A program made the position numbers and the translations under genes. Below, piece after piece: positions 194-45,379 of a stretch of DNA of 64,000 nucleotides. The DNA is from a virus (taxonomy: Duplodnaviria > Heunggongvirae > Uroviricota > Caudoviricetes), in the IMG/VR virus record IMGVR_UViG_3300010412_000010, positions 14,463-78,462 of that record. The stretch is one strand, 5' to 3'. The notes beneath the pieces are model-generated. The model did not search any database and was not told the DNA's origin. It was given only the letters and a program-made list of their open reading frames with translations. How positions within the stretch are numbered: position 1 is the first letter of the stretch; each line of letters begins with the position of its first letter.

Positions 194-2158
194 ATGGCCA
201 TTATCACACTACCAATTCCACCGCATGTCCTTAAGTCCGAGTCATTCGATTCGTGGCGCATAAAATTCAATGAAATTATTGATGTGCTGAATAGTATCAG
301 TGGTACAATCAATGCCGAAGACATTGTGTTTGATAATGCGGGCACTTCTTTGGTTGGTGCTGATGTTCAGGCGGTAATCGAGGAATTGGATGATAAGACC
401 CAGCCAGCTACGGCGATAGCACATGGTATTGCCAGACCAACTAACATTTTCGATATCATCACATTGCTAACGACTTCTGGTGCTGCACCATCCGATGTAT
501 TTCTTTCATTGGATGACTTTAAGGCATTGATGTTGGGTACCCAAACAGATGTTCCTTTTGATGGGCCTGGATTTGGACAACTCCCAGGAACTCAGGATTA
601 TTATCTTGATACATCTAAGTATGCACAATTTTCTGGCGGACTTGAACTTAGATGGGGCATTGCAACCATCCCAGCTTCGGTTTCAAACTATCAAGTTCCT
701 TTTGAGAATTTTGTTGTAAATACGGAAATCAAACAATTTGGACAAACAGAAAACCAGAATGTTACCAATGGACAAACAGTCATAACACTACAAGAAATGT
801 TTGTCGAAGAGGGCGTCAATGAAGTAACAATTGTTTTTGTTGACACAACAACTCTTACTCCGGTAACAATGTATAAAGACAGGGATTTTGAAATTACAGG
901 GGAAGCAGAACTTACCCTGATTGGCCCATATACTGCCGGATTTCCAGACAGTGGTACTATTGCCGTAACCAGAGCGAACCTGATTGTTCTTTCTGGCCCT
1001 ACGCACATGCAACTTACTCCATTGATTAATGCAAACAATGCCGCCGGTTCCCTTTATTTAAGAAAATACGATATTTTCAGTTTTTATGTTGAAAATACTT
1101 TCCCATATGATGTGGAATGTCTTTGGTATGCCATTGGCGGACAGGGCGCTCCGTCTCTCGGAACAACAGAGTATTACCATCCGGCGATTGGCGACGATTC
1201 AATTTTTCCAACCACTGCGATGAATGCATTGAACTATGTTCGCATGAGATACTATCAGGATGGGCTTTCTGGTGGATACACAGAACATGTGGTAGGTAAA
1301 TCGCTACAGATTGATGGTCAGCATAAGCTGAGACTAAAATATAACGGTGTTGGTATTAGGGAAAACGAAAGTACGGCTATTGCTGGGGTCAACCCATTAG
1401 TTTCCATGCCAACAATAACAAGCCTTTCTGGGACAACCAATGATGTGTATTATGATGATGGTGTTGTTTCGCCGTATAGATTGAATGAAGGTAGTGATTA
1501 TGAAATCGTGTCTTCTACTGATATTCAGTTTACTGGAACATATGCCGGTACAATTGATGTATATACCTACTGGGTTGAGTTTTTGCCTGGTGGTATTGTA
1601 GACACAGAGGTTATTGCGGTTCTTGCGGCAGACACCTTTGTAACAACTACAACCCTTATATTTGAAGATTCAAATGTATTGGTTGTTACATACGACGATG
1701 GTATTCCTGTCGAATTGGTAGAGAATGTTGACTATACAAAAGATGAACTAACACAGACCATTACTCTTACTGCCGCTGCTTTTGGTGCAACTGGCCAGTT
1801 TCCCAACAACGGAAATGTGACTGTAGAACAACGAGCGGGCGATAATGGTGCTGGTGTCGTGGAGCTTTTGTTTGGTAAAGAAAAGCAACAAGAATATGAT
1901 GTTACTTCTGGACAAACGGCAATTACTGTATACGCATATCCTTTGGCACCGGAACCATACAACATGTCTTATGGCCTTACCGATATCATAGAATTTACCT
2001 ACTATGATAGAGCGGATAATGGTGCTGCTATTAAGTTTGTCGAAGGTGTGGATTTCCAAAGAGAATTGACTGGCGATACCCTAACACTGATAGGAGCATA
2101 TTCTGGCGGATTCCCATCCAACGGAAAAGCAAATATCAAAATAATTAGAATAGAATAA
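194..2158 (+). CDS. virion structural protein (baseplate/tail-fibre region)
   Basis: 654-aa ORF in a co-directional late structural block upstream of the neck genes; rich in Thr/Gly/Val with beta-like repeats; no specific family recognised. Confidence 0.45.
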   Translation: MAIITLPIPPHVLKSESFDSWRIKFNEIIDVLNSISGTINAEDIVFDNAGTSLVGADVQAVIEELDDKTQPATAIAHGIARPTNIFDIITLLTTSGAAPSDVFLSLDDFKALMLGTQTDVPFDGPGFGQLPGTQDYYLDTSKYAQFSGGLELRWGIATIPASVSNYQVPFENFVVNTEIKQFGQTENQNVTNGQTVITLQEMFVEEGVNEVTIVFVDTTTLTPVTMYKDRDFEITGEAELTLIGPYTAGFPDSGTIAVTRANLIVLSGPTHMQLTPLINANNAAGSLYLRKYDIFSFYVENTFPYDVECLWYAIGGQGAPSLGTTEYYHPAIGDDSIFPTTAMNALNYVRMRYYQDGLSGGYTEHVVGKSLQIDGQHKLRLKYNGVGIRENESTAIAGVNPLVSMPTITSLSGTTNDVYYDDGVVSPYRLNEGSDYEIVSSTDIQFTGTYAGTIDVYTYWVEFLPGGIVDTEVIAVLAADTFVTTTTLIFEDSNVLVVTYDDGIPVELVENVDYTKDELTQTITLTAAAFGATGQFPNNGNVTVEQRAGDNGAGVVELLFGKEKQQEYDVTSGQTAITVYAYPLAPEPYNMSYGLTDIIEFTYYDRADNGAAIKFVEGVDFQRELTGDTLTLIGAYSGGFPSNGKANIKIIRIE

Positions 2159-13008: not shown

Positions 13009-15027
13009 ATGGCCTTCTATCTAAGTCCAATTATTGATGTAAATGAGATTGACCTTACCCTTGGGGTTCCGGCAGTTTCAACTTCTATCGGTGCGTTTGC
13101 TGGTCCTTTCGTATGGGGTCCGGTTGAAGAGATTGTAACTATCGCATCCGAAACCGAACTTGCTGCAAGATTCGGCAAGCCAGATAACGACACTGCGGCA
13201 TCATGGTTCAGTGCTGCCAACTTTTTGGCATATTCAAATAACCTGAAAACTGTCCGTGTTGTTGGTTCTCTTGCCGTAAACGCTGGTTCTTCGGGAACAG
13301 GCGTTCTTATCAAAAACGAAACTGATTATGAAAATAAGATTGACGGAATCGTTCTTGATGGCTCAGAATTTTTTGCAAAATATCCTGGTTCTCTTGGAAA
13401 TGGTTTGCAAGTGTATGCCCAAAACTCAGCAAACTATTCTTCATGGACATTCGCTGATGCGTTTGATTCTGCCCCAGCAGCAAACGAAATTCATTTGGTA
13501 GTTGTTGACGGTGACGGTACATGGACTGGTATCGCCGGTAATATTTTGGAAAAATTTGCATTCTTGTCAACTGTTGCTGGTACCCAGTCTTCGGATGGTT
13601 CGAATGTGTACTACAAAGATGTCATCACCCAGCAATCCAGATACATTTGGGTTGGTGGTGGAGCAGACGAAACCGCGTTCACCAATGCAAGCCAAACCAA
13701 TTCAATTTCTTCGGAATCAACTGTTGTTGCTGCACTAGACCCAAGTGTTGTTGCACTGACAACTGACATTTCTGGAACAGATTTGTTGTATGTTACTTTC
13801 GATTCTGGTTCTGGCCCAGTTGAGTTGGTGGAAGGCGTTGACTACACCAAGACAATTAACGCGTCTCCAACACCAGACGAATTGGACTTCACCCTACTGA
13901 ATGGTGGTGCTACCTTCCCAGTTGGCGGAACAATTGCCGTTGTTGTTACCCCAGCAACCATTACGACTACCGCACCTTTCGATGCGGACGATACCTTGGT
14001 TGTTACCATTGGTACTTCTACCCTGGTGGAAGGCACCGAATATAGCAGAACAGCACCAAACATGATTAATATGTTGTTGCCGTTGGAAGTCGCTGGTACG
14101 CTGACAATCAAAAACGAATTCTTTGCAGAATTGTCTGGCGGGGTTGACGATAACATTGGTGTTGATATCACCGATGGATATGAAATGTTCAGAAATGCCG
14201 AAGAGGTTGACATTTCGTTAGTTGTTACAGGCCCAGCCACCCAAGTACAAGCAGAATGGGTTCTGGACAATATCGGCGAATACAGAAAAGACTGTGTGGT
14301 ATTCATTTCCCCAGAAAAATCTGATGTCGTAAACAATCCAGGTGACGAAGTTGCTGATACCGTTGCGTTCAGAAACCAGTTCAATAGCTCTTCATATGGC
14401 TTCATGGACAATAACTGGAAAAAACAATACGACCGATACAACGATACCTTCCGTTGGGTTCCATTGAACGGTGATATTGCTGGCTTGGCCGCATATACCG
14501 ACAATGTTTCCGACCCTTGGTATTCGATTGCTGGTTTTAATCGCGGTCTGGTTAAGAATGTTGTCAAGTTGGCATACAGCCCGAACCAAACTCAGCGCGA
14601 TGAACTGTACAAGAATGGCGTGAATCCAGTGGTTAATTTCTCTGGTCAAGGCACTGTGTTGTATGGCGACAAAACCATGTTGTCTCGCCCAAGCGCGTTC
14701 GACAGAATCAATGTTCGTCGACTGTTTATTGTGTTGGAAAAGGCGATTGCTACAGCAGCAAAATATCAGTTGTTTGAATTCAACGACGAGTTTACTCGCG
14801 CACAGTTCAAGAACATGGTTGAGCCGTTCTTGCGTGATGTTCAAGGCCGTCGTGGTATCTATGACTTCCGAGTTGTTGCCGATACAACAAACAACACACC
14901 GGAAGTGATTGACAGAAACGAGTTTGTTGGTGATATCTATATCAAACCAGCTAGGTCAATTAATTTCATTCGACTGAACTTCATTGCGGTTCGCACTGGC
15001 GTGTCGTTCGAAGAAGTTGGCGCATAA
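13009..15027 (+). CDS. 18: tail sheath protein gp18
   Basis: C-terminal ~200 aa closely match T4 gp18 (KQYDRYNDTFRWVPLNGDIAGL...FDRINVRRLF...RVVADTTNNTPEVIDRNEFVGDIYIKPARSINFIRLNF). Confidence 0.9.
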   Translation: MAFYLSPIIDVNEIDLTLGVPAVSTSIGAFAGPFVWGPVEEIVTIASETELAARFGKPDNDTAASWFSAANFLAYSNNLKTVRVVGSLAVNAGSSGTGVLIKNETDYENKIDGIVLDGSEFFAKYPGSLGNGLQVYAQNSANYSSWTFADAFDSAPAANEIHLVVVDGDGTWTGIAGNILEKFAFLSTVAGTQSSDGSNVYYKDVITQQSRYIWVGGGADETAFTNASQTNSISSESTVVAALDPSVVALTTDISGTDLLYVTFDSGSGPVELVEGVDYTKTINASPTPDELDFTLLNGGATFPVGGTIAVVVTPATITTTAPFDADDTLVVTIGTSTLVEGTEYSRTAPNMINMLLPLEVAGTLTIKNEFFAELSGGVDDNIGVDITDGYEMFRNAEEVDISLVVTGPATQVQAEWVLDNIGEYRKDCVVFISPEKSDVVNNPGDEVADTVAFRNQFNSSSYGFMDNNWKKQYDRYNDTFRWVPLNGDIAGLAAYTDNVSDPWYSIAGFNRGLVKNVVKLAYSPNQTQRDELYKNGVNPVVNFSGQGTVLYGDKTMLSRPSAFDRINVRRLFIVLEKAIATAAKYQLFEFNDEFTRAQFKNMVEPFLRDVQGRRGIYDFRVVADTTNNTPEVIDRNEFVGDIYIKPARSINFIRLNFIAVRTGVSFEEVGA

Positions 15028-37507: not shown

Positions 37508-37592
37508 ATGGAGCGTAACCGAGTGGTCAAAGGTATCAGACTTTTAATCTGACGCGAAATGCTTCGGGGGTTCGAATCCCCCCGCTCCAACC
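37508..37592 (+). tRNA. type-II (long-variable-arm) tRNA with apparent anticodon TTT; identity uncertain (Leu-like body, A73)
   Basis: Acceptor tggagcg/cgctcca; 3-bp D stem; anticodon arm tcaga-cTTTTaa-tctga; 14-nt variable arm; T arm ggggg-ttcgaat-ccccc; CCA. Confidence 0.5.
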
Positions 37593-37611
37593 ACTTTATC
37601 AAGAGGATGTT

Positions 37612-38172
37612 ATGTCTCAGGCGTCTATTGCATATTGGATTGACCCCAAGGGTAAGCTTGTATCTGGTGGGTTGAAACGACACATCGAATTGGTTGCGGC
37701 TTCGCCAACCAAATTCTTAATTTCTAAAAAAGAAGTCGAATCCATCTATAACAAACACAATGAAGTTGTTGGAACAGAAGGTAAGGCGCGGGAAGAAATT
37801 ATCAAAAAAATCCTTAGCGTTGGTTTTATTCGCCTACGCATTTATCCAAACGATTATTGGAGTGTGACTGTCGATACATTCAATCGTCGAGCAAAGGTTG
37901 CGTTACAGAAATGGGCACAACAGGAAGGCGGACTGATGCCTGTGAAAATTTCACAATCAGGAAAGCCATCCGCAAAAACGATTGAATATACCGTAGATGA
38001 ACTTGCAAATGGCGACCATTTGTTTGAGCAAGCAGACTATGAGCTTGCAAAAACATTTACCATTGAGGTTGTCGATATTGAACATTTTGGTTTTGATGTT
38101 GATGATAACGCGGTGATTTTCAATCGAAACCTAGTGATTGAAACTTTGAAGAAATGTGGGCGATTAGTTTAA
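37612..38172 (+). CDS. hypothetical protein
   Basis: 186-aa ORF; its last 15 nt overlap the acceptor stem of the following tRNA-like gene. Confidence 0.4.
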   Translation: MSQASIAYWIDPKGKLVSGGLKRHIELVAASPTKFLISKKEVESIYNKHNEVVGTEGKAREEIIKKILSVGFIRLRIYPNDYWSVTVDTFNRRAKVALQKWAQQEGGLMPVKISQSGKPSAKTIEYTVDELANGDHLFEQADYELAKTFTIEVVDIEHFGFDVDDNAVIFNRNLVIETLKKCGRLV

Positions 38173-38252
38173 TTGGTAAAACACCAAGCTTATACCTTGG
38201 CATGGCACCAGATTAGTGCAAGTTGTCCGTTCGAATCGGACATCGCCCACCA
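38158..38252 (+). tRNA. atypical 95-nt tRNA, anticodon TAT (Ile-AUA?), ~24-nt variable arm
   Basis: Perfect acceptor gggcgat/atcgccc; D stem gttt/aaac; anticodon arm ccaag-ctTATac-cttgg; T arm gtccg-ttcgaat-cggac; CCA. Overlaps the CDS 3' end. Confidence 0.4.
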
Positions 38253-40512: not shown

Positions 40513-40589
40513 GTCGCTGTAGCTCAGTTGAATAGAGCAATTGCCTTCTAAGCAATCGGTCGTAGGTTTGAGTCCTACCAGCGACGCCA
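40513..40589 (+). tRNA. tRNA-Arg (TCT)
   Basis: Near-duplicate of the Arg(TCG) gene body; anticodon loop ctTCTaa; CCA. Confidence 0.8.
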
Positions 40590-41977: not shown

Positions 41978-42811
41978 TCACCGATACATGATTGTAGTTT
42001 TCGCCTTATTGAATTTACCAGCACCACGACGAAGGTCTTTGATATTTTTATTCTTGTTTCTGTTTTTTGATGCGTTTGCTAAGTTAAAAATCTTCTTGCT
42101 GTATTCCAAGTCTCGTTTTTTGATGTCCGCGTCATAGTCTTTCAGTGAACGATATTTCGTGTAGATTTTGTGTGCTTCTTCTTTCCATGCCCATAGTTTT
42201 TTTGTCATCACCTGTACTTCTGCGATGATATCACCCACAACAATTTTGAAATGATGTGAGCCACGATAGCCATATTCTGGGTCTGCTTTTTCGTCTTTGT
42301 ATTCATATGATTGAACAACCGCGCGTTTTTTTAGACGCTTTACCACATCCAGCACATCGTGTTTTTCTGGAACAAGAATGGCACCACGCAACACATCGTG
42401 AATTTGTTTTGGGTCTTTTCCGCGATTAACCGCTTTGTCAATAAACGAATCGAGTGATTTGAAATCGACGAGAATTTTCGTGTTGTTTGGTGAAACTGCT
42501 TTCAATAGCCGCGAATATGTTTTTTCGGCTTCTAGTGCCTTTTCATGCGCTTGTAACCATGCGGATTCCGCAGACGAACGCCTTTCCTCTTCGGTGTCGC
42601 CACTAATTCCTTGCCATGGCTGATATCCCGCTAATCTGGCTGGGTCTGTTGATGTGCGCTGTGCTGCACCAGAAACTTCGTCCAGTTCATATTGTTCCAC
42701 GACATGTTCCACGGAGTCTAGCCCGACGATAAAGTCCAATTCCTCGGTCAAATCGAACATATCGGTCAATATTTTCTTATTAATATCAATTACTTGCGAT
42801 AATGATTTCAT
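41978..42811 (-). CDS. RelA/SpoT-homologue small alarmone synthetase (SAS / toxSAS-like nucleotidyltransferase)
   Basis: Synthetase motifs IHDVLRGAILV and GYRGSHHFKIVVGDIIAEVQVMTKKLWAWKEEAHKIY (compare GYRSLH...EVQIRT...W); start trimmed to ATG 42811. One of only two minus-strand genes. Confidence 0.7.
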   Translation of the reverse strand: MKSLSQVIDINKKILTDMFDLTEELDFIVGLDSVEHVVEQYELDEVSGAAQRTSTDPARLAGYQPWQGISGDTEEERRSSAESAWLQAHEKALEAEKTYSRLLKAVSPNNTKILVDFKSLDSFIDKAVNRGKDPKQIHDVLRGAILVPEKHDVLDVVKRLKKRAVVQSYEYKDEKADPEYGYRGSHHFKIVVGDIIAEVQVMTKKLWAWKEEAHKIYTKYRSLKDYDADIKKRDLEYSKKIFNLANASKNRNKNKNIKDLRRGAGKFNKAKTTIMYR

Positions 42812-42845
42812 TTTATTGTCTCGAATAAATACCAACGGTCTATTT

Positions 42846-42884: not shown

Positions 42885-42908
42885 TATTCGTGGTTGTTGG
42901 AGAAAAAG

Positions 42909-43391
42909 ATGAATAAGTTGATTGGTTCAAATCTTGTGTTCGATGAGGCGATGTATCTTGCTGCCATAGCGCATAACGGAAGTGTTGATTTGGGTGGTGC
43001 GCCGTACATTCTTCACCCGATTCGCGTCGCGGCCAGTTTGTTGGTCGTTTGGCCGTATGATTACGAACTGGCCGCAATCGGGTTGTTGCATGATGTTGTT
43101 GAAGACACCAATATGACCTTTGAGGATTTGGAAAAAATTGGGTTTTCTCCCCGTGTTGTCGATGCTCTTCGTGCGTTGACCCACAAAAAAGGTGTTCCGT
43201 ATGATGCCTACATTGACGACCTGATTGCTACCAAGAACTGGTCTGCGATTGCGGTAAAACTGGCTGATTTGAAAGATAATGCCAATTTGAGCCGTCTTGG
43301 GAATAATGTTGGTGCCGCTGATATCAAGCGTACTGAGAAATATATTCGTGCGATTGCGAAAATCGAAGCATTGGATATTGTCGATATGTAA
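42909..43391 (+). CDS. HD-domain (p)ppGpp hydrolase (small alarmone hydrolase, SpoT/Mesh1-like)
   Basis: YILHPIRVAASLL...AAIGLLHDVVEDT...FSPRVVDALRALT matches the SpoT hydrolase HD signature (HP..VA.IL...AALLHDVIEDT). Confidence 0.8.
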   Translation: MNKLIGSNLVFDEAMYLAAIAHNGSVDLGGAPYILHPIRVAASLLVVWPYDYELAAIGLLHDVVEDTNMTFEDLEKIGFSPRVVDALRALTHKKGVPYDAYIDDLIATKNWSAIAVKLADLKDNANLSRLGNNVGAADIKRTEKYIRAIAKIEALDIVDM

Positions 43392-43421
43392 AAAAAAATC
43401 ATATTTGATGAAAAAAAACCA

Positions 43422-43450
43422 TTGACAATCGTATAAATAGCACTTAGAAT
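43422..43450 (+). promoter_or_regulatory. strong sigma70-like promoter (TTGACA-17-TAGAAT); a late motif TATAAATA is embedded in the spacer (43432-43439)
   Basis: Consensus -35 and near-consensus -10; no CDS follows for about 0.9 kb. Confidence 0.55.
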
Positions 43451-43457
43451 GTGCGAA

Positions 43458-44357
43458 TGTTTTTGGGGCATAGCCCAGATAACCAATCGTAAGGTTGGGA
43501 AAGGTGTGAAGTCAACATAACACCACCTTCGCAAGAAGGCCAATCTATGCAAGCCGAGGAAGTAGTACCTAGTGTGCCATGCATACTAGGAACGGATGAA
43601 ACAAGAGGTAAAAGTCAGTGCAATAATCAAAGACTGGCCAGCAAAGAATGGGGACATTTGATGCTACCTGTATCCAACTTGTGAACCGTATTTCCGAAGG
43701 GTAGGGTGGATAGTGAGAGTTTTAGCGGACAATTGCACCATCCAGTTTACGAGGTTGCTTTGTCATATCGACAAAGAATCTTGAAAAACGGTATGAGTAT
43801 TCTTAGCGGAAGAAAATACAGGGGGCGCGTTGTATTTTGTGGTTCAAAAGACCATGAAGCAACCGGAAGCGCGCGTCCTAGTTGATACGATATAGCCGAA
43901 TGGTACGGCATCAGCCTTCTAAGCTGACGATTGGTGGTTCGATTCCATCTATTGTTTACAAAAGCAAAGACGCTTCCGGTGTCAGATGAAAATGACTTAA
44001 GCCCGTGCGCGCAAGCGAACGCGGGAAGTCCAAGGCTCGCAAGGCTGCGGATTTTTAAGGTGTAGTTGCACGGAACCGAAGCACGGTTTGTAGCCCGCAA
44101 GGCTGACGGTAAACGAAACTTTGAGAAGTCTGGCACGACAAGAGAACCGCCACTCTTCAAAAAAGGCAGTCATGGAGAAATAGATATTTGGGCGAAAGCT
44201 GGGTATCTGGATAAGACTTTAACACTGGCAGCAACCAGTTGGTACGGAGTCGAAAGTTTCTTCAAGTGAGGGTGTAATCTCAGCCCAAACCAAATATTCG
44301 CATGGTGATTGGAAAACTGGATTACTGAATAGTACCGACAGTCACCAGCCGAATATT
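43458..44357 (+). ncRNA. promoter-driven structured non-coding region (candidate stable RNA(s); RNase P RNA-like motifs in 43981-44357)
   Basis: No plausible + strand ORF; multiple GNRA-type hairpins; contains a tRNA-like element. Motifs gggaagtccaaggctcgc, gacggtaaacg, cacgacaagagaaccgcc, agcccaaaccaaata and acagtcaccagccgaata resemble RNase P RNA conserved regions I, III, IV and V in the correct order. Confidence 0.3.
43886..43957 (+). tRNA. tRNA-like element (Arg TCT-type anticodon), no encoded CCA, 1:72 mismatch
   Basis: D arm gccg-aatggta-cggc; anticodon arm tcagc-ctTCTaa-gctga; T arm ggtgg-ttcgatt-ccatc; flanked by 10-bp inverted repeats accggaagcg (43862-71) and cgcttccggt (43971-80). 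Confidence 0.35.
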
Positions 44358-44358
44358 T

Positions 44359-44435
44359 GCCCTAGAAACTTTTAGTTGGATGAAGCAGTGCCTTGTAAGC
44401 ACTGGAAGCAGGTTCGATTCCTGACTGGGGCACCA
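44359..44435 (+). tRNA. tRNA-Thr (TGT)
   Basis: Acceptor gccctag/ctggggc; anticodon arm agtgc-ctTGTaa-gcact; T-loop ttcgatt; CCA. Confidence 0.7.
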
Positions 44436-44449
44436 ACTAAATAATATTG

Positions 44450-44528
44450 TGGTAGGTATATTTTAATTGGCGAAAAATCCGGAATGTGACTCCGGCCATT
44501 GTCGGTTCGAATCCGACTACCTACCCCA
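44450..44528 (+). tRNA. tRNA-His (GTG) with encoded G-1
   Basis: G-1 opposite C73; D arm tttt-aattggcg-aaaa; anticodon arm ccgga-atGTGac-tccgg; T arm gtcgg-ttcgaat-ccgac; CCA. Confidence 0.8.
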
Positions 44529-44534
44529 CAACTC

Positions 44535-44609
44535 CAGTCGGTAGCTCCAATGGTAGAGCGGCGGTCTCCAAAACCGCATGTTGTAGGTTCGAGTCCTACC
44601 CGGCTGGCC
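44535..44609 (+). tRNA. tRNA-Trp (CCA)
   Basis: Anticodon arm gcggt-ctCCAaa-accgc; T arm gtagg-ttcgagt-cctac; CCA. Confidence 0.8.
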
Positions 44610-44616
44610 AAATGAA

Positions 44617-44693
44617 TAGCCCCGTAGCTCAACTGGCTAGAGCATCGGCCTTTGAAGTCGTGTGTTATTGGTTCGAATCCAATCGGGGTTGCC
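44617..44693 (+). tRNA. tRNA-Gln (TTG)
   Basis: Canonical D arm; anticodon loop ctTTGaa (4-bp stem with a G-U pair); T arm attgg-ttcgaat-ccaat; CCA. Confidence 0.7.
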
Positions 44694-44698
44694 AGTTT

Positions 44699-44776
44699 TC
44701 GGGGTGTAGCACAGTCTGGCCAGTGCGCTTGCTTTGGGAGTAAGATGTCGGGAGTTCGAATCTCTCCACCCCGACC
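44699..44776 (+). tRNA. tRNA-Pro (TGG)
   Basis: Anticodon arm cttgc-ttTGGga-gtaag; T arm gggag-ttcgaat-ctctc; CCA. Confidence 0.8.
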
Positions 44777-44969
44777 AATTTGTTGTAACAGTAGTAATAG
44801 TATTGAGTGGAAATGAATGGTTTTTTCAGAACAGTCAAATACAAATCGTTGCGAACAATTGTCAGATATAACAATCTTGACAGCTATGCTCGTTCCGATT
44901 TGTATCATGTAATCGGAATATTTGTTGGTTCCGTTGCGTTGATTTGTCTTGCGTTTATGGTGTGATTTT

Positions 44970-45045
44970 GCGGGGTAGTTCAGTGGTCAGAATAGTTGGC
45001 TCATAACCAAAAGGCCGGTGGTTCGAATCCACCCTCCGCAACCAG
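44970..45045 (+). tRNA. tRNA with CAT anticodon (second Met, or Ile2 after lysidine modification)
   Basis: Acceptor tgcgggg/ctccgca; anticodon arm gttgg-ctCATaa-ccaaa; T arm ggtgg-ttcgaat-ccacc; CCA. Confidence 0.7.
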
Positions 45046-45326: not shown

Positions 45327-45347
45327 TCGCTGATTTTGGCACATGAA

Positions 45348-45379
45348 GCCCAGTTCAGTGATTTGGACTGGGCTTTTTT
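45348..45379 (+). terminator. rho-independent terminator
   Basis: Hairpin gcccagt...actgggc followed by a T-run. Confidence 0.7.

Follow-up and report, generated by a model that had tools for sequence, protein, structure and literature searches.

A GOLLD RNA with a tRNA-like cloverleaf in its linker, located in the tRNA island of a T4-like environmental phage

Few known RNAs of bacteria and phages are as large or as elaborate as GOLLD, the cage structure of which was solved in 2025. In the published examples a less conserved 5′ domain (~420 nt) precedes a 3′ domain of ~410 nt, and a linker that is variable and disordered faces the interior of the cage; phages with tRNA genes are a reported habitat of the family (Kretsch et al. 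2025, PMC12286853). The stretch analysed here, referred to below as the window, comprises 64,000 nt of a Caudoviricetes genome (IMG/VR record IMGVR_UViG_3300010412_000010, positions 14,463 to 78,462), and all coordinates are those of the window unless a related locus is named. A non-coding stretch of about 0.83 kb within its tRNA island (inside 43422-44357) is securely identified as a GOLLD RNA, a giant phage RNA family already known. The RNA has a two-domain architecture with covarying helices in both domains, a helix that closes the linker, a long-range pairing within the 3′ domain, and a tRNA-like cloverleaf positioned in the linker.

The env-38 GOLLD, from a marine metagenome, is 833 nt long and was resolved as a 14-mer by cryo-electron microscopy (cryo-EM; PDB 9MEE) (Kretsch et al. 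2025, PMC12286853). It shares its 3′-domain architecture with the window RNA, is of nearly the same length (~830 nt here), and also adjoins a tRNA. Common to both are the P14 hairpin with its A-rich loop, a linker closure of the 467-471/555-559 type and a long-range pairing of the 562-569/709-716 type (env-38 numbering). The two differ in the linker, which in env-38 (497-538) is a disordered stretch of 42 nt with no tRNA, whereas that of the window RNA holds a 72-nt cloverleaf. They differ also in the 5′ domain, which is 421 nt in env-38 and ~365 nt here, the latter showing no detectable similarity to most GOLLD 5′ regions.

Two further GOLLD systems are relevant, both as reported in a review. 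GOLLD RNAs of Mycolicibacterium/Mycobacterium carry a tRNA-Phe in J13/15 (Morgado et al. 2020, cited in PMC12990946), the single-stranded 3′-domain linker that is occupied here too, and their loci likewise lie in tRNA arrays. As described there, those arrays are actinobacterial and the tRNA is tRNA-Phe, whereas the present locus is in a T4-like phage and the anticodon is UCU. The GOLLD of Streptococcus agalactiae was resolved by cryo-EM as a 12-mer (9L0R), and its 3′ domain alone as a 10-mer (9LMF) (Wang et al. 2025, summarised in PMC12990946). According to that summary its plan is the same: P14-P27 make up the conserved 3′ domain, and the stoichiometry is set by a variable 5′ cap domain. It differs in being a prophage or chromosomal copy in a Firmicute, of ~700 nt, in which several helices are absent.

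ROOL RNAs resemble GOLLD in being large phage or prophage RNAs found near tRNA islands, and in forming an RNA-only cage with a disordered internal linker. Their sequence and fold are unrelated to GOLLD, and the Rfam scan of the whole window gave no ROOL match. M1 RNA, the RNase P ribozyme, is like the window RNA only in the size of its 3′ segment and in the genomic association with tRNAs; the window RNA has no covariance model match to it, and neither a P4 nor a P1 helix. Species 1 and 2, the stable RNAs of the T4 tRNA cluster, are small (~140 nt) and are co-transcribed and co-processed with the phage tRNAs. We know of no relation between them and GOLLD.

The family assignment comes from an Rfam scan of the window at curated thresholds, in which GOLLD (RF02032) was the sole non-tRNA match. 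It lies at 43822-44286 on the plus strand and scores 190.5 bits, the gathering score being 150 (E 4.3e-52); the alignment runs through the model from end to end (positions 1-416 of 416). When 43300-44500 was scanned permissively (E ≤ 10), five matches came out: GOLLD, the embedded tRNA-like element (63.3 bits), a weak match to part of the tRNA model where tRNA-Thr begins, and two sub-threshold matches to eukaryotic snoRNAs that represent chance. With these permissive filters, no RNase P, tmRNA, 6S or group I intron family was matched in that interval. The model end (44286) and a start that probably lies near 43457 give a full length of ~830 nt. The parts of the RNA are as follows.

43457-43821, plus strand: GOLLD 5′ domain, a lineage-specific variant of ~365 nt (homology and covariation)
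43468-43473/43545-43550, plus strand: covarying helix of the 5′ domain (covariation scan)
43484-43488/43493-43497, plus strand: covarying helix of the 5′ domain, with a GNRA loop (covariation scan)
43553-43556/43699-43702, plus strand: covarying helix of the 5′ domain (covariation scan)
43566-43573/43591-43598, plus strand: covarying helix of the 5′ domain (covariation scan)
43704-43708/43739-43743, plus strand: covarying helix of the 5′ domain (covariation scan)
43822-43879, plus strand: first hairpin of the GOLLD 3′ domain, P14 in the env-38 structure (Rfam model positions 1-62)
43862-43871, plus strand: 5′ arm of the linker-closing helix, ACCGGAAGCG (covariation in 41 relatives)
43886-43957, plus strand: tRNA-like cloverleaf in the linker, anticodon UCU (Arg) (ARAGORN Arg-tct; Rfam tRNA, 63.3 bits)
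43971-43980, plus strand: 3′ arm of the linker-closing helix, CGCTTCCGGT, overlapping the next pairing strand (43979-43987) by 2-3 nt
43979-43987, plus strand: 5′ strand of the long-range pairing, annotated in Rfam as a pseudoknot; partner 44128-44136
43988-44286, plus strand: rest of the conserved GOLLD 3′ domain (Rfam alignment through model position 416)

The longest open reading frames (ORFs) on the plus strand of this region are of 45-67 aa, and a minus-strand ORF of 137 aa begins with TTG; no ORF of the region, including the last, has a Pfam match at E ≤ 0.1. The first-pass annotation of the window, made by eye from the sequence, had likewise seen no credible plus-strand ORF here, and as a fallback it had allowed for a different stable RNA expressed from its own promoter within the tRNA cluster. 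That fallback was correct, the RNA being GOLLD. The covariance model score, the covarying helices of the 3′ domain, the presence of a 5′ domain, the tRNA-rich phage setting and the absence of coding capacity all agree with the family. Searches of a phage collection in near and distant modes found no nucleotide relatives of 43400-44360, so that this copy counts as a new family member; the phage as a whole has only ~33% amino acid relatives in that collection.

Related loci (designated L with a number) were gathered by sequence motifs. A generic 3′-domain motif was found in more than 119 viral contigs, among which only L116 aligns along the entire element. A 15-mer, AAAAAGGCAGTCATG, at 44160-44174 is invariant among the close relatives, and the clade-specific anchor built on it, GCCACN{5,7}AAAAAGGCAGTCATG (window 44149-44174), matched 61 metagenome, 15 viral and 31 genome stretches. 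The genome stretches are mostly from metagenome-assembled genomes (MAGs) of Gammaproteobacteria; L318-L348 carry the anchor in uncultured Gammaproteobacteria (Woeseiaceae, Rariloculaceae, Pseudomonadales, Granulosicoccus and sponge-associated bins) and in a few other MAGs. The viral and metagenome stretches yielded 53 full-length candidates, which came to 46 unique sequences with the window included, and 41 were kept; these are the 41 relatives used for the pairing statistics below. Chance matches to the anchor (L262, L288, L296 and L306) were excluded. L298 was set aside as it lacks a 5′ domain: at 1751-2740 it has the 3′-domain anchor with four tRNA genes where the 5′ domain would stand, its tRNA-His is displaced in the 3′ direction from the usual linker position, and it may be a GOLLD variant without a 5′ domain. 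A scan with a bare 14-mer returned mostly chance matches and recovered five true relatives. The pattern TGACGGTANANGAAACTTTGA led to L126-L128, which were dropped as they gave no alignment to the window at E ≤ 10.

The 3′ domain opens with P14, in which the outer stem (43822-43828 pairing with 43873-43879) is 94.8% canonical across the 41 relatives and shows compensatory changes. The apical loop is CAAAA (43845-43849), and both C43845 and the A residues at 43846-43849 are nearly invariant. In the solved structure the A-run of L14 forms the A-minor bridge B6 between subunits (Kretsch et al. 2025, PMC12286853). Another published intermolecular bridge, B7, joins L20 with J13/15. A conserved 9-nt internal loop of P14 (43864-43872) supplies the 5′ arm of the linker-closing helix. 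Further along, the loop at 44079-44083 (AAGCA) is centred on GC, with CG at the aligned place in L116, and this loop fits the published GC/CG kissing loop L21a (PMC12286853), the mapping having been done by eye. Together, the near-invariant A-run and the central GC appear to fit the published inter-subunit contacts. The domain ends in a terminal hairpin, GGGTGTAATCTCAGCCC. The GNRA-closed hairpins that had been remarked on in the first-pass annotation are real, and are helices of GOLLD.

The linker-closing helix has its core pairs at 43865-43871/43971-43977. Over its full length (43862-43871/43971-43980) the pairing is 93.4% canonical in the 41 relatives, with 3-6 pair types per position at 43865-43870, and both sides change in all seven core pairs (7/7). 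It is the equivalent of env-38 pairs 467-471/555-559, which are marked as covarying pairs compatible with, and additional to, the annotated structure (Kretsch et al. 2025, PMC12286853, Supplementary Table 3). The two arms are the 10-bp inverted repeat that had been described as precisely flanking the cloverleaf and as a possible tRNA processing stem. The repeat exists and brackets the cloverleaf, but each arm lies 14 nt away from it and does not abut it. The helix covaries throughout the family and persists in members in which the linker has no tRNA, such as L252, and for these reasons it is not a stem dedicated to tRNA processing. The inverted repeat is a known architectural element of GOLLD that closes the linker loop.

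Immediately downstream of this helix begins the long-range pairing (43979-43987/44128-44136), in which both sides change in 9/9 tested pairs; it is 86.5% canonical over the 10 aligned pairs 43978-43987/44128-44137. It corresponds to env-38 pairs 562-569/709-716 (Kretsch et al. 2025, PMC12286853, Supplementary Table 3). The published covarying pairs of env-38 that are matched here are 422-481, 467-471/555-559 and 562-569/709-716 (Kretsch et al. 2025, PMC12286853). The linker-closing helix, the outer stem of P14 and the Rfam pseudoknot (23 pairs in all) were also tested jointly by pair counting (alignment A3). Paired cells made up 91.7%, compared with 70.1% in shuffled alignments (0 of 500 reached the observed value) and 30-50% when the strands were slid against each other. 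The covariation score was 0.679, against 0.257 for shuffled and at most 0.147 for slid alignments, and two-sided changes occurred in 20 of the 23 pairs.

Upstream of the part modelled by Rfam, homology detected by nhmmer reaches back to 43463-43482 in L116, L240, L186 and L196. This upstream region measures 345-414 nt across the 41 relatives (375 nt in the window) and has conserved islands common to them. RNAalifold gave a fragmentary consensus for it, the MAFFT alignment not being structure-aware, and was replaced by a helix-by-helix covariation scan with column-shuffled controls. The scan found eight covarying helices (40 bp), each at least 85% canonical with compensatory variation in the 41 relatives. 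Across 30 column-shuffled alignments, the mean number of such helices was 0.63 and the maximum 3.

The features that flank the RNA are the following.

43422-43450, plus strand: sigma70-like promoter, TTGACA (43422-43427), a 17-nt spacer and TAGAAT (43445-43450); 11/12 consensus matches
43432-43439, plus strand: TATAAATA, a T4-type late-promoter-like motif that overlaps the sigma70 spacer (motif enrichment)
44291-44359, plus strand: additional 69-nt hairpin between the GOLLD 3′ end and tRNA-Thr (folding compared with shuffles)
44359-45044, plus strand: six co-oriented tRNA genes (Thr, His, Trp, Gln, Pro, Met) (ARAGORN)
45345-45376, plus strand: first strong intrinsic terminator downstream, a 14-bp stem followed by a T run (terminator search)

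Both promoter elements had been noticed in the first-pass annotation and are present. The TTGACA-17-TAGAAT site is the only one of such quality in the 64-kb window. The ORF upstream ends at 43391, shortly before the site, and the first conserved helix of GOLLD begins a few bases after it; a TTGACA...TATAAT pair occurs at the same aligned place in L116 and L196. This position and conservation make the promoter credible, and transcription probably starts at ~43457. The embedded motif TATAAATA occurs seven times in the window (12943, 17583, 19224, 30857, 34474, 42846 on the minus strand, and 43432), compared with 1.9 expected, and 0 of 100 shuffles reached seven. All seven copies are 11-60 nt upstream of a gene start, and the genes behind them include the tail sheath gene, the first tRNA of the island, a minus-strand RelA_SpoT-like ORF and GOLLD. 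By analogy with T4, the copies are plausibly late promoters.

Between GOLLD and the six downstream tRNAs there is no strong terminator, and the tRNAs are probably co-transcribed with it; the terminator at 45345-45376 is the likely end of the unit. The hairpin at 44291-44359 has a folding energy of −25.9 kcal/mol (z = −5.7), a stability reached by 0 of 200 shuffles. G1 of tRNA-Thr takes part in its last pair, and the hairpin is not conserved in L116. An RNase P cut at G44359 would leave 44291-44358, which is probably a protective 3′ cap. In many relatives, a tRNA-Asp follows within ~17 nt of the end of GOLLD, or a terminator-like hairpin stands in its stead. The tRNA-Thr(tgt) gene (44359-44435) is called by ARAGORN and ends in CCA. 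Its score with the Rfam tRNA model is only 17.8 bits, a low value that points to an unusual D arm.

The first-pass annotation had favoured a phage-encoded RNase P RNA, an M1-like ribozyme at 43981-44357 that would process the phage pre-tRNAs. The segment is indeed ~377 nt long and within a tRNA cluster, and four short strings in it loosely resemble the conserved regions CR-I, CR-III, CR-IV and CR-V. This tempting annotation can be corrected. No RNase P family (bacterial A or B, archaeal, nuclear) was matched at E ≤ 10 in 43300-44500 with permissive filters, and none at gathering score in the whole window. The proposal is effectively refuted, since the same scan that gave no RNase P match identified GOLLD at 190.5 bits instead. 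The bases at 43822-44286 are aligned to GOLLD helices, the pairings of which covary. The four strings exist, but those likened to CR-I and CR-III fall within hairpins of GOLLD and the 3′ strand of its long-range pairing, and those likened to CR-IV and CR-V are, respectively, the 5′ and 3′ arms of the separate 69-nt hairpin. The P4 and P1 helices had not been identified by the first-pass annotation either; with the CR-I string paired in adjacent GOLLD hairpins, no P4-type pairing (CR-I/CR-V) is left, and the agreement in length with M1 RNA is a coincidence. If the region were instead a mere transcribed leader or spacer of the tRNA operon, with fortuitous hairpins and no function of its own, its location between a promoter and six tRNAs would be explained, and the promoter match is not significant alone. 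That view is very improbable given the GOLLD match (E 4e-52) and the extensive covariation of both domains in over 40 loci from viral contigs and metagenomes, the clade motif being found in bacterial MAGs too. There is hardly any chance that the region serves to encode a small protein, such as the 137-aa minus-strand ORF (43747-44160) or a 67-aa ORF (44066-44269). ORFs of such sizes exist, but they are without a Pfam match at E ≤ 0.1, and substitutions in the relatives preserve base pairing. The 137-aa ORF begins with TTG, is antisense to the tRNA-like element and to covarying RNA helices, and runs opposite to the plus strand that carries nearly all other large ORFs of the window.

tRNAs within the GOLLD linker have already been documented (PMC12990946). 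For the cloverleaf of the window RNA, ARAGORN and the Rfam tRNA model agree with the first-pass description (43886-43957, anticodon TCT, no encoded CCA and a mismatch at 1:72). The mismatch is U1·U72, the bases that follow the acceptor stem are ACA, and the anticodon loop has 7 nt. CCA is encoded by 25 of 26 tRNAs in the window, the embedded cloverleaf being the lone exception. A second, canonical tRNA-Arg(UCU) with CCA lies at 40513-40589, and its sequence is unrelated to that of the embedded one. Linker cloverleaves were then surveyed in 74 unique loci of the clade (L116 and L171-L348), genome-derived loci included. A cloverleaf is found in 58/74 (78%), ~230-330 nt upstream of the anchor AAAAAGGCAGTCATG, and in 22 of the 25 unique genome-derived loci. 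The 58 have 28 different anticodon calls, and 10 of them have anticodon loops of 6 or 8 nt; some have A34 anticodons (ATT, ATA). CCA is encoded in 15/58, compared with 546/593 of the other same-strand tRNAs at the same loci (Fisher p = 2e-29); the ARAGORN calls are uncurated and the CCA criterion was lenient (within 3 bases of the ARAGORN end), so that the figures are approximate, and the contrast is large. Near-identical cloverleaf bodies occur with differing anticodons (L253 GAT compared with L254/L305 GAA; L266 TAT compared with L273 TAG), and the window cloverleaf has TCT where its closest relative, L116, has CTA. These clade-level properties are not described in the literature consulted, and they are the only part of the present analysis with some novelty. 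The amber-reading cloverleaf of L116 (2644-2718, minus strand) is accompanied by a second CTA tRNA 1.3 kb downstream (1291-1368, minus strand), which hints at stop-codon suppression or recoding in that phage.

One explanation of the cloverleaf would be an ordinary decoding tRNA-Arg(UCU), for which GOLLD serves as flanking precursor or storage form, the tRNA being excised by RNase P and RNase Z and given its CCA by the host. The high tRNA score (63.3 bits) would suit this, as would the minority of clade cloverleaves with an encoded CCA (15/58), and a 2026 review speculates on "inhibited storage" of embedded tRNAs (PMC12990946). We consider it unlikely. The phage already has the canonical tRNA-Arg(UCU) with CCA at 40513-40589, and the embedded copy is alone among 26 in having no CCA and has an acceptor stem that is not fully paired (U1·U72). 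At the level of the clade, CCA is far rarer in linker cloverleaves than in their neighbours, anticodon loops of 6 or 8 nt (10/58) and A34 anticodons occur, and different anticodons are carried on near-identical bodies (L253 and L254/L305). The alternative that the cloverleaf is a dedicated tRNA-like module of the GOLLD cage, and not a spare decoding tRNA, would draw on its presence in 78% of loci, the usual absence of CCA, the conserved body and the free, sometimes malformed anticodon. This is a speculative suggestion that we hold to be quite doubtful. The pattern would be compatible with 10-14 caged tRNA mimics per particle, serving perhaps as a decoy or bait for host factors that target tRNAs (anticodon nucleases, or enzymes that modify tRNAs or add CCA); another possibility is that RNase P uses the cloverleaf as a handle to open or split the cage late in infection.

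With GOLLD as the identity of the RNA, a scheme for its expression and assembly can be proposed. It would be transcribed from its own promoter, sigma70-like and/or late-type (TATAAATA), starting near 43457, as the first gene of a unit that reads through six tRNAs to the terminator at 45345-45376. Cleavage by RNase P at the 5′ end of tRNA-Thr (44359) would probably generate the 3′ end of GOLLD, which would then finish in a stable hairpin. By homology with the solved GOLLD RNAs, the transcript would fold into its 5′ domain and conserved 3′ domain, and copies would self-assemble into a hollow, homo-oligomeric, RNA-only cage, as do the env-38 14-mer and the S. agalactiae 12-mer. The linker, closed by 43865-43871/43971-43977, would point into the cavity and place the cloverleaf with its UCU anticodon inside the cage. 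Our best guess is that GOLLD acts late in infection on translation or the tRNA machinery, with the cloverleaf held in the cage as tRNA-like cargo, either stored or sequestered; this machinery is suspected because the RNA appears to be a late-expressed cage with a tRNA-like cargo in a tRNA operon.

Several points weigh against this interpretation. The Rfam model of GOLLD spans the 3′ half of the RNA only, and a hidden Markov model (HMM) of the 5′-domain sequence finds only L116 among 108 other GOLLD loci. The lone match fits the reported divergence of GOLLD 5′ domains, and the equivalence of the present 5′ domain to P1-P13 of the solved structures is assumed. A single sigma70 site with 11/12 matches arises by chance in 47 of 100 shuffles, so the match alone is not significant. 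Excision of the cloverleaf by RNase P and RNase Z would split the RNA, and a cage would then need the halves to stay paired. We infer the cage assembly, transcript ends and processing from homologous RNAs and from the arrangement of the locus, and no function has been reported in the literature for any GOLLD. We give the whole statement, i.e., the GOLLD identity together with the proposed transcription, processing and cage steps, a probability of about 0.92.

As a family member, the window copy adds little, and a GOLLD in a tRNA-rich environmental myovirus would be unsurprising to a specialist. Its setting is genetically legible, being a T4-like phage in which the RNA has its own promoter with a late-type motif and heads a six-tRNA operon, and the second, canonical tRNA-Arg(UCU) provides an internal control. 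The locus is therefore a reasonable system in which to study the role of the caged linker tRNA. The clade-wide pattern, in which linker cloverleaves are common, mostly without CCA and variable in anticodon, gives a testable handle on GOLLD function.

The window phage has a T4-type portal (E 6e-159), a sheath and a family B polymerase (PolB), with a G+C content of ~42%. ARAGORN finds 29 tRNAs in the window, one fewer than the 30 counted in the first-pass annotation. Directly upstream of the GOLLD promoter, within the tRNA island, there is a divergent gene pair.

41978-42835, minus strand: RelA_SpoT synthetase-like ORF, 285 aa (Pfam PF04607, E 7e-9; phrog_37685)
42894-43391, plus strand: HD_4 phosphohydrolase, 165 aa (PF13328; phrog_990, E 6e-42)

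The two resemble a small alarmone synthetase and hydrolase, or a toxSAS-like tRNA pyrophosphokinase with its hydrolase. PADLOC gave no match for either ORF. No exact copy of the HD protein was found in public contigs, and GOLLD was not found in the loci that carry its relatives (L120-L125), so synteny was of no help. Just past the terminator of the GOLLD-tRNA unit, the ORF at 45401-46156 matches the S-adenosylmethionine (SAM) lyase family (PF23780, E 3.6e-11), and is possibly an anti-restriction SAM lyase. Two other tRNAs in the window, tRNA-Lys(ttt) (37509-37593, 85 nt) and tRNA-Ile(tat) (38158-38252, 95 nt), are unusually long for their identities, perhaps through an insertion or a long variable arm.

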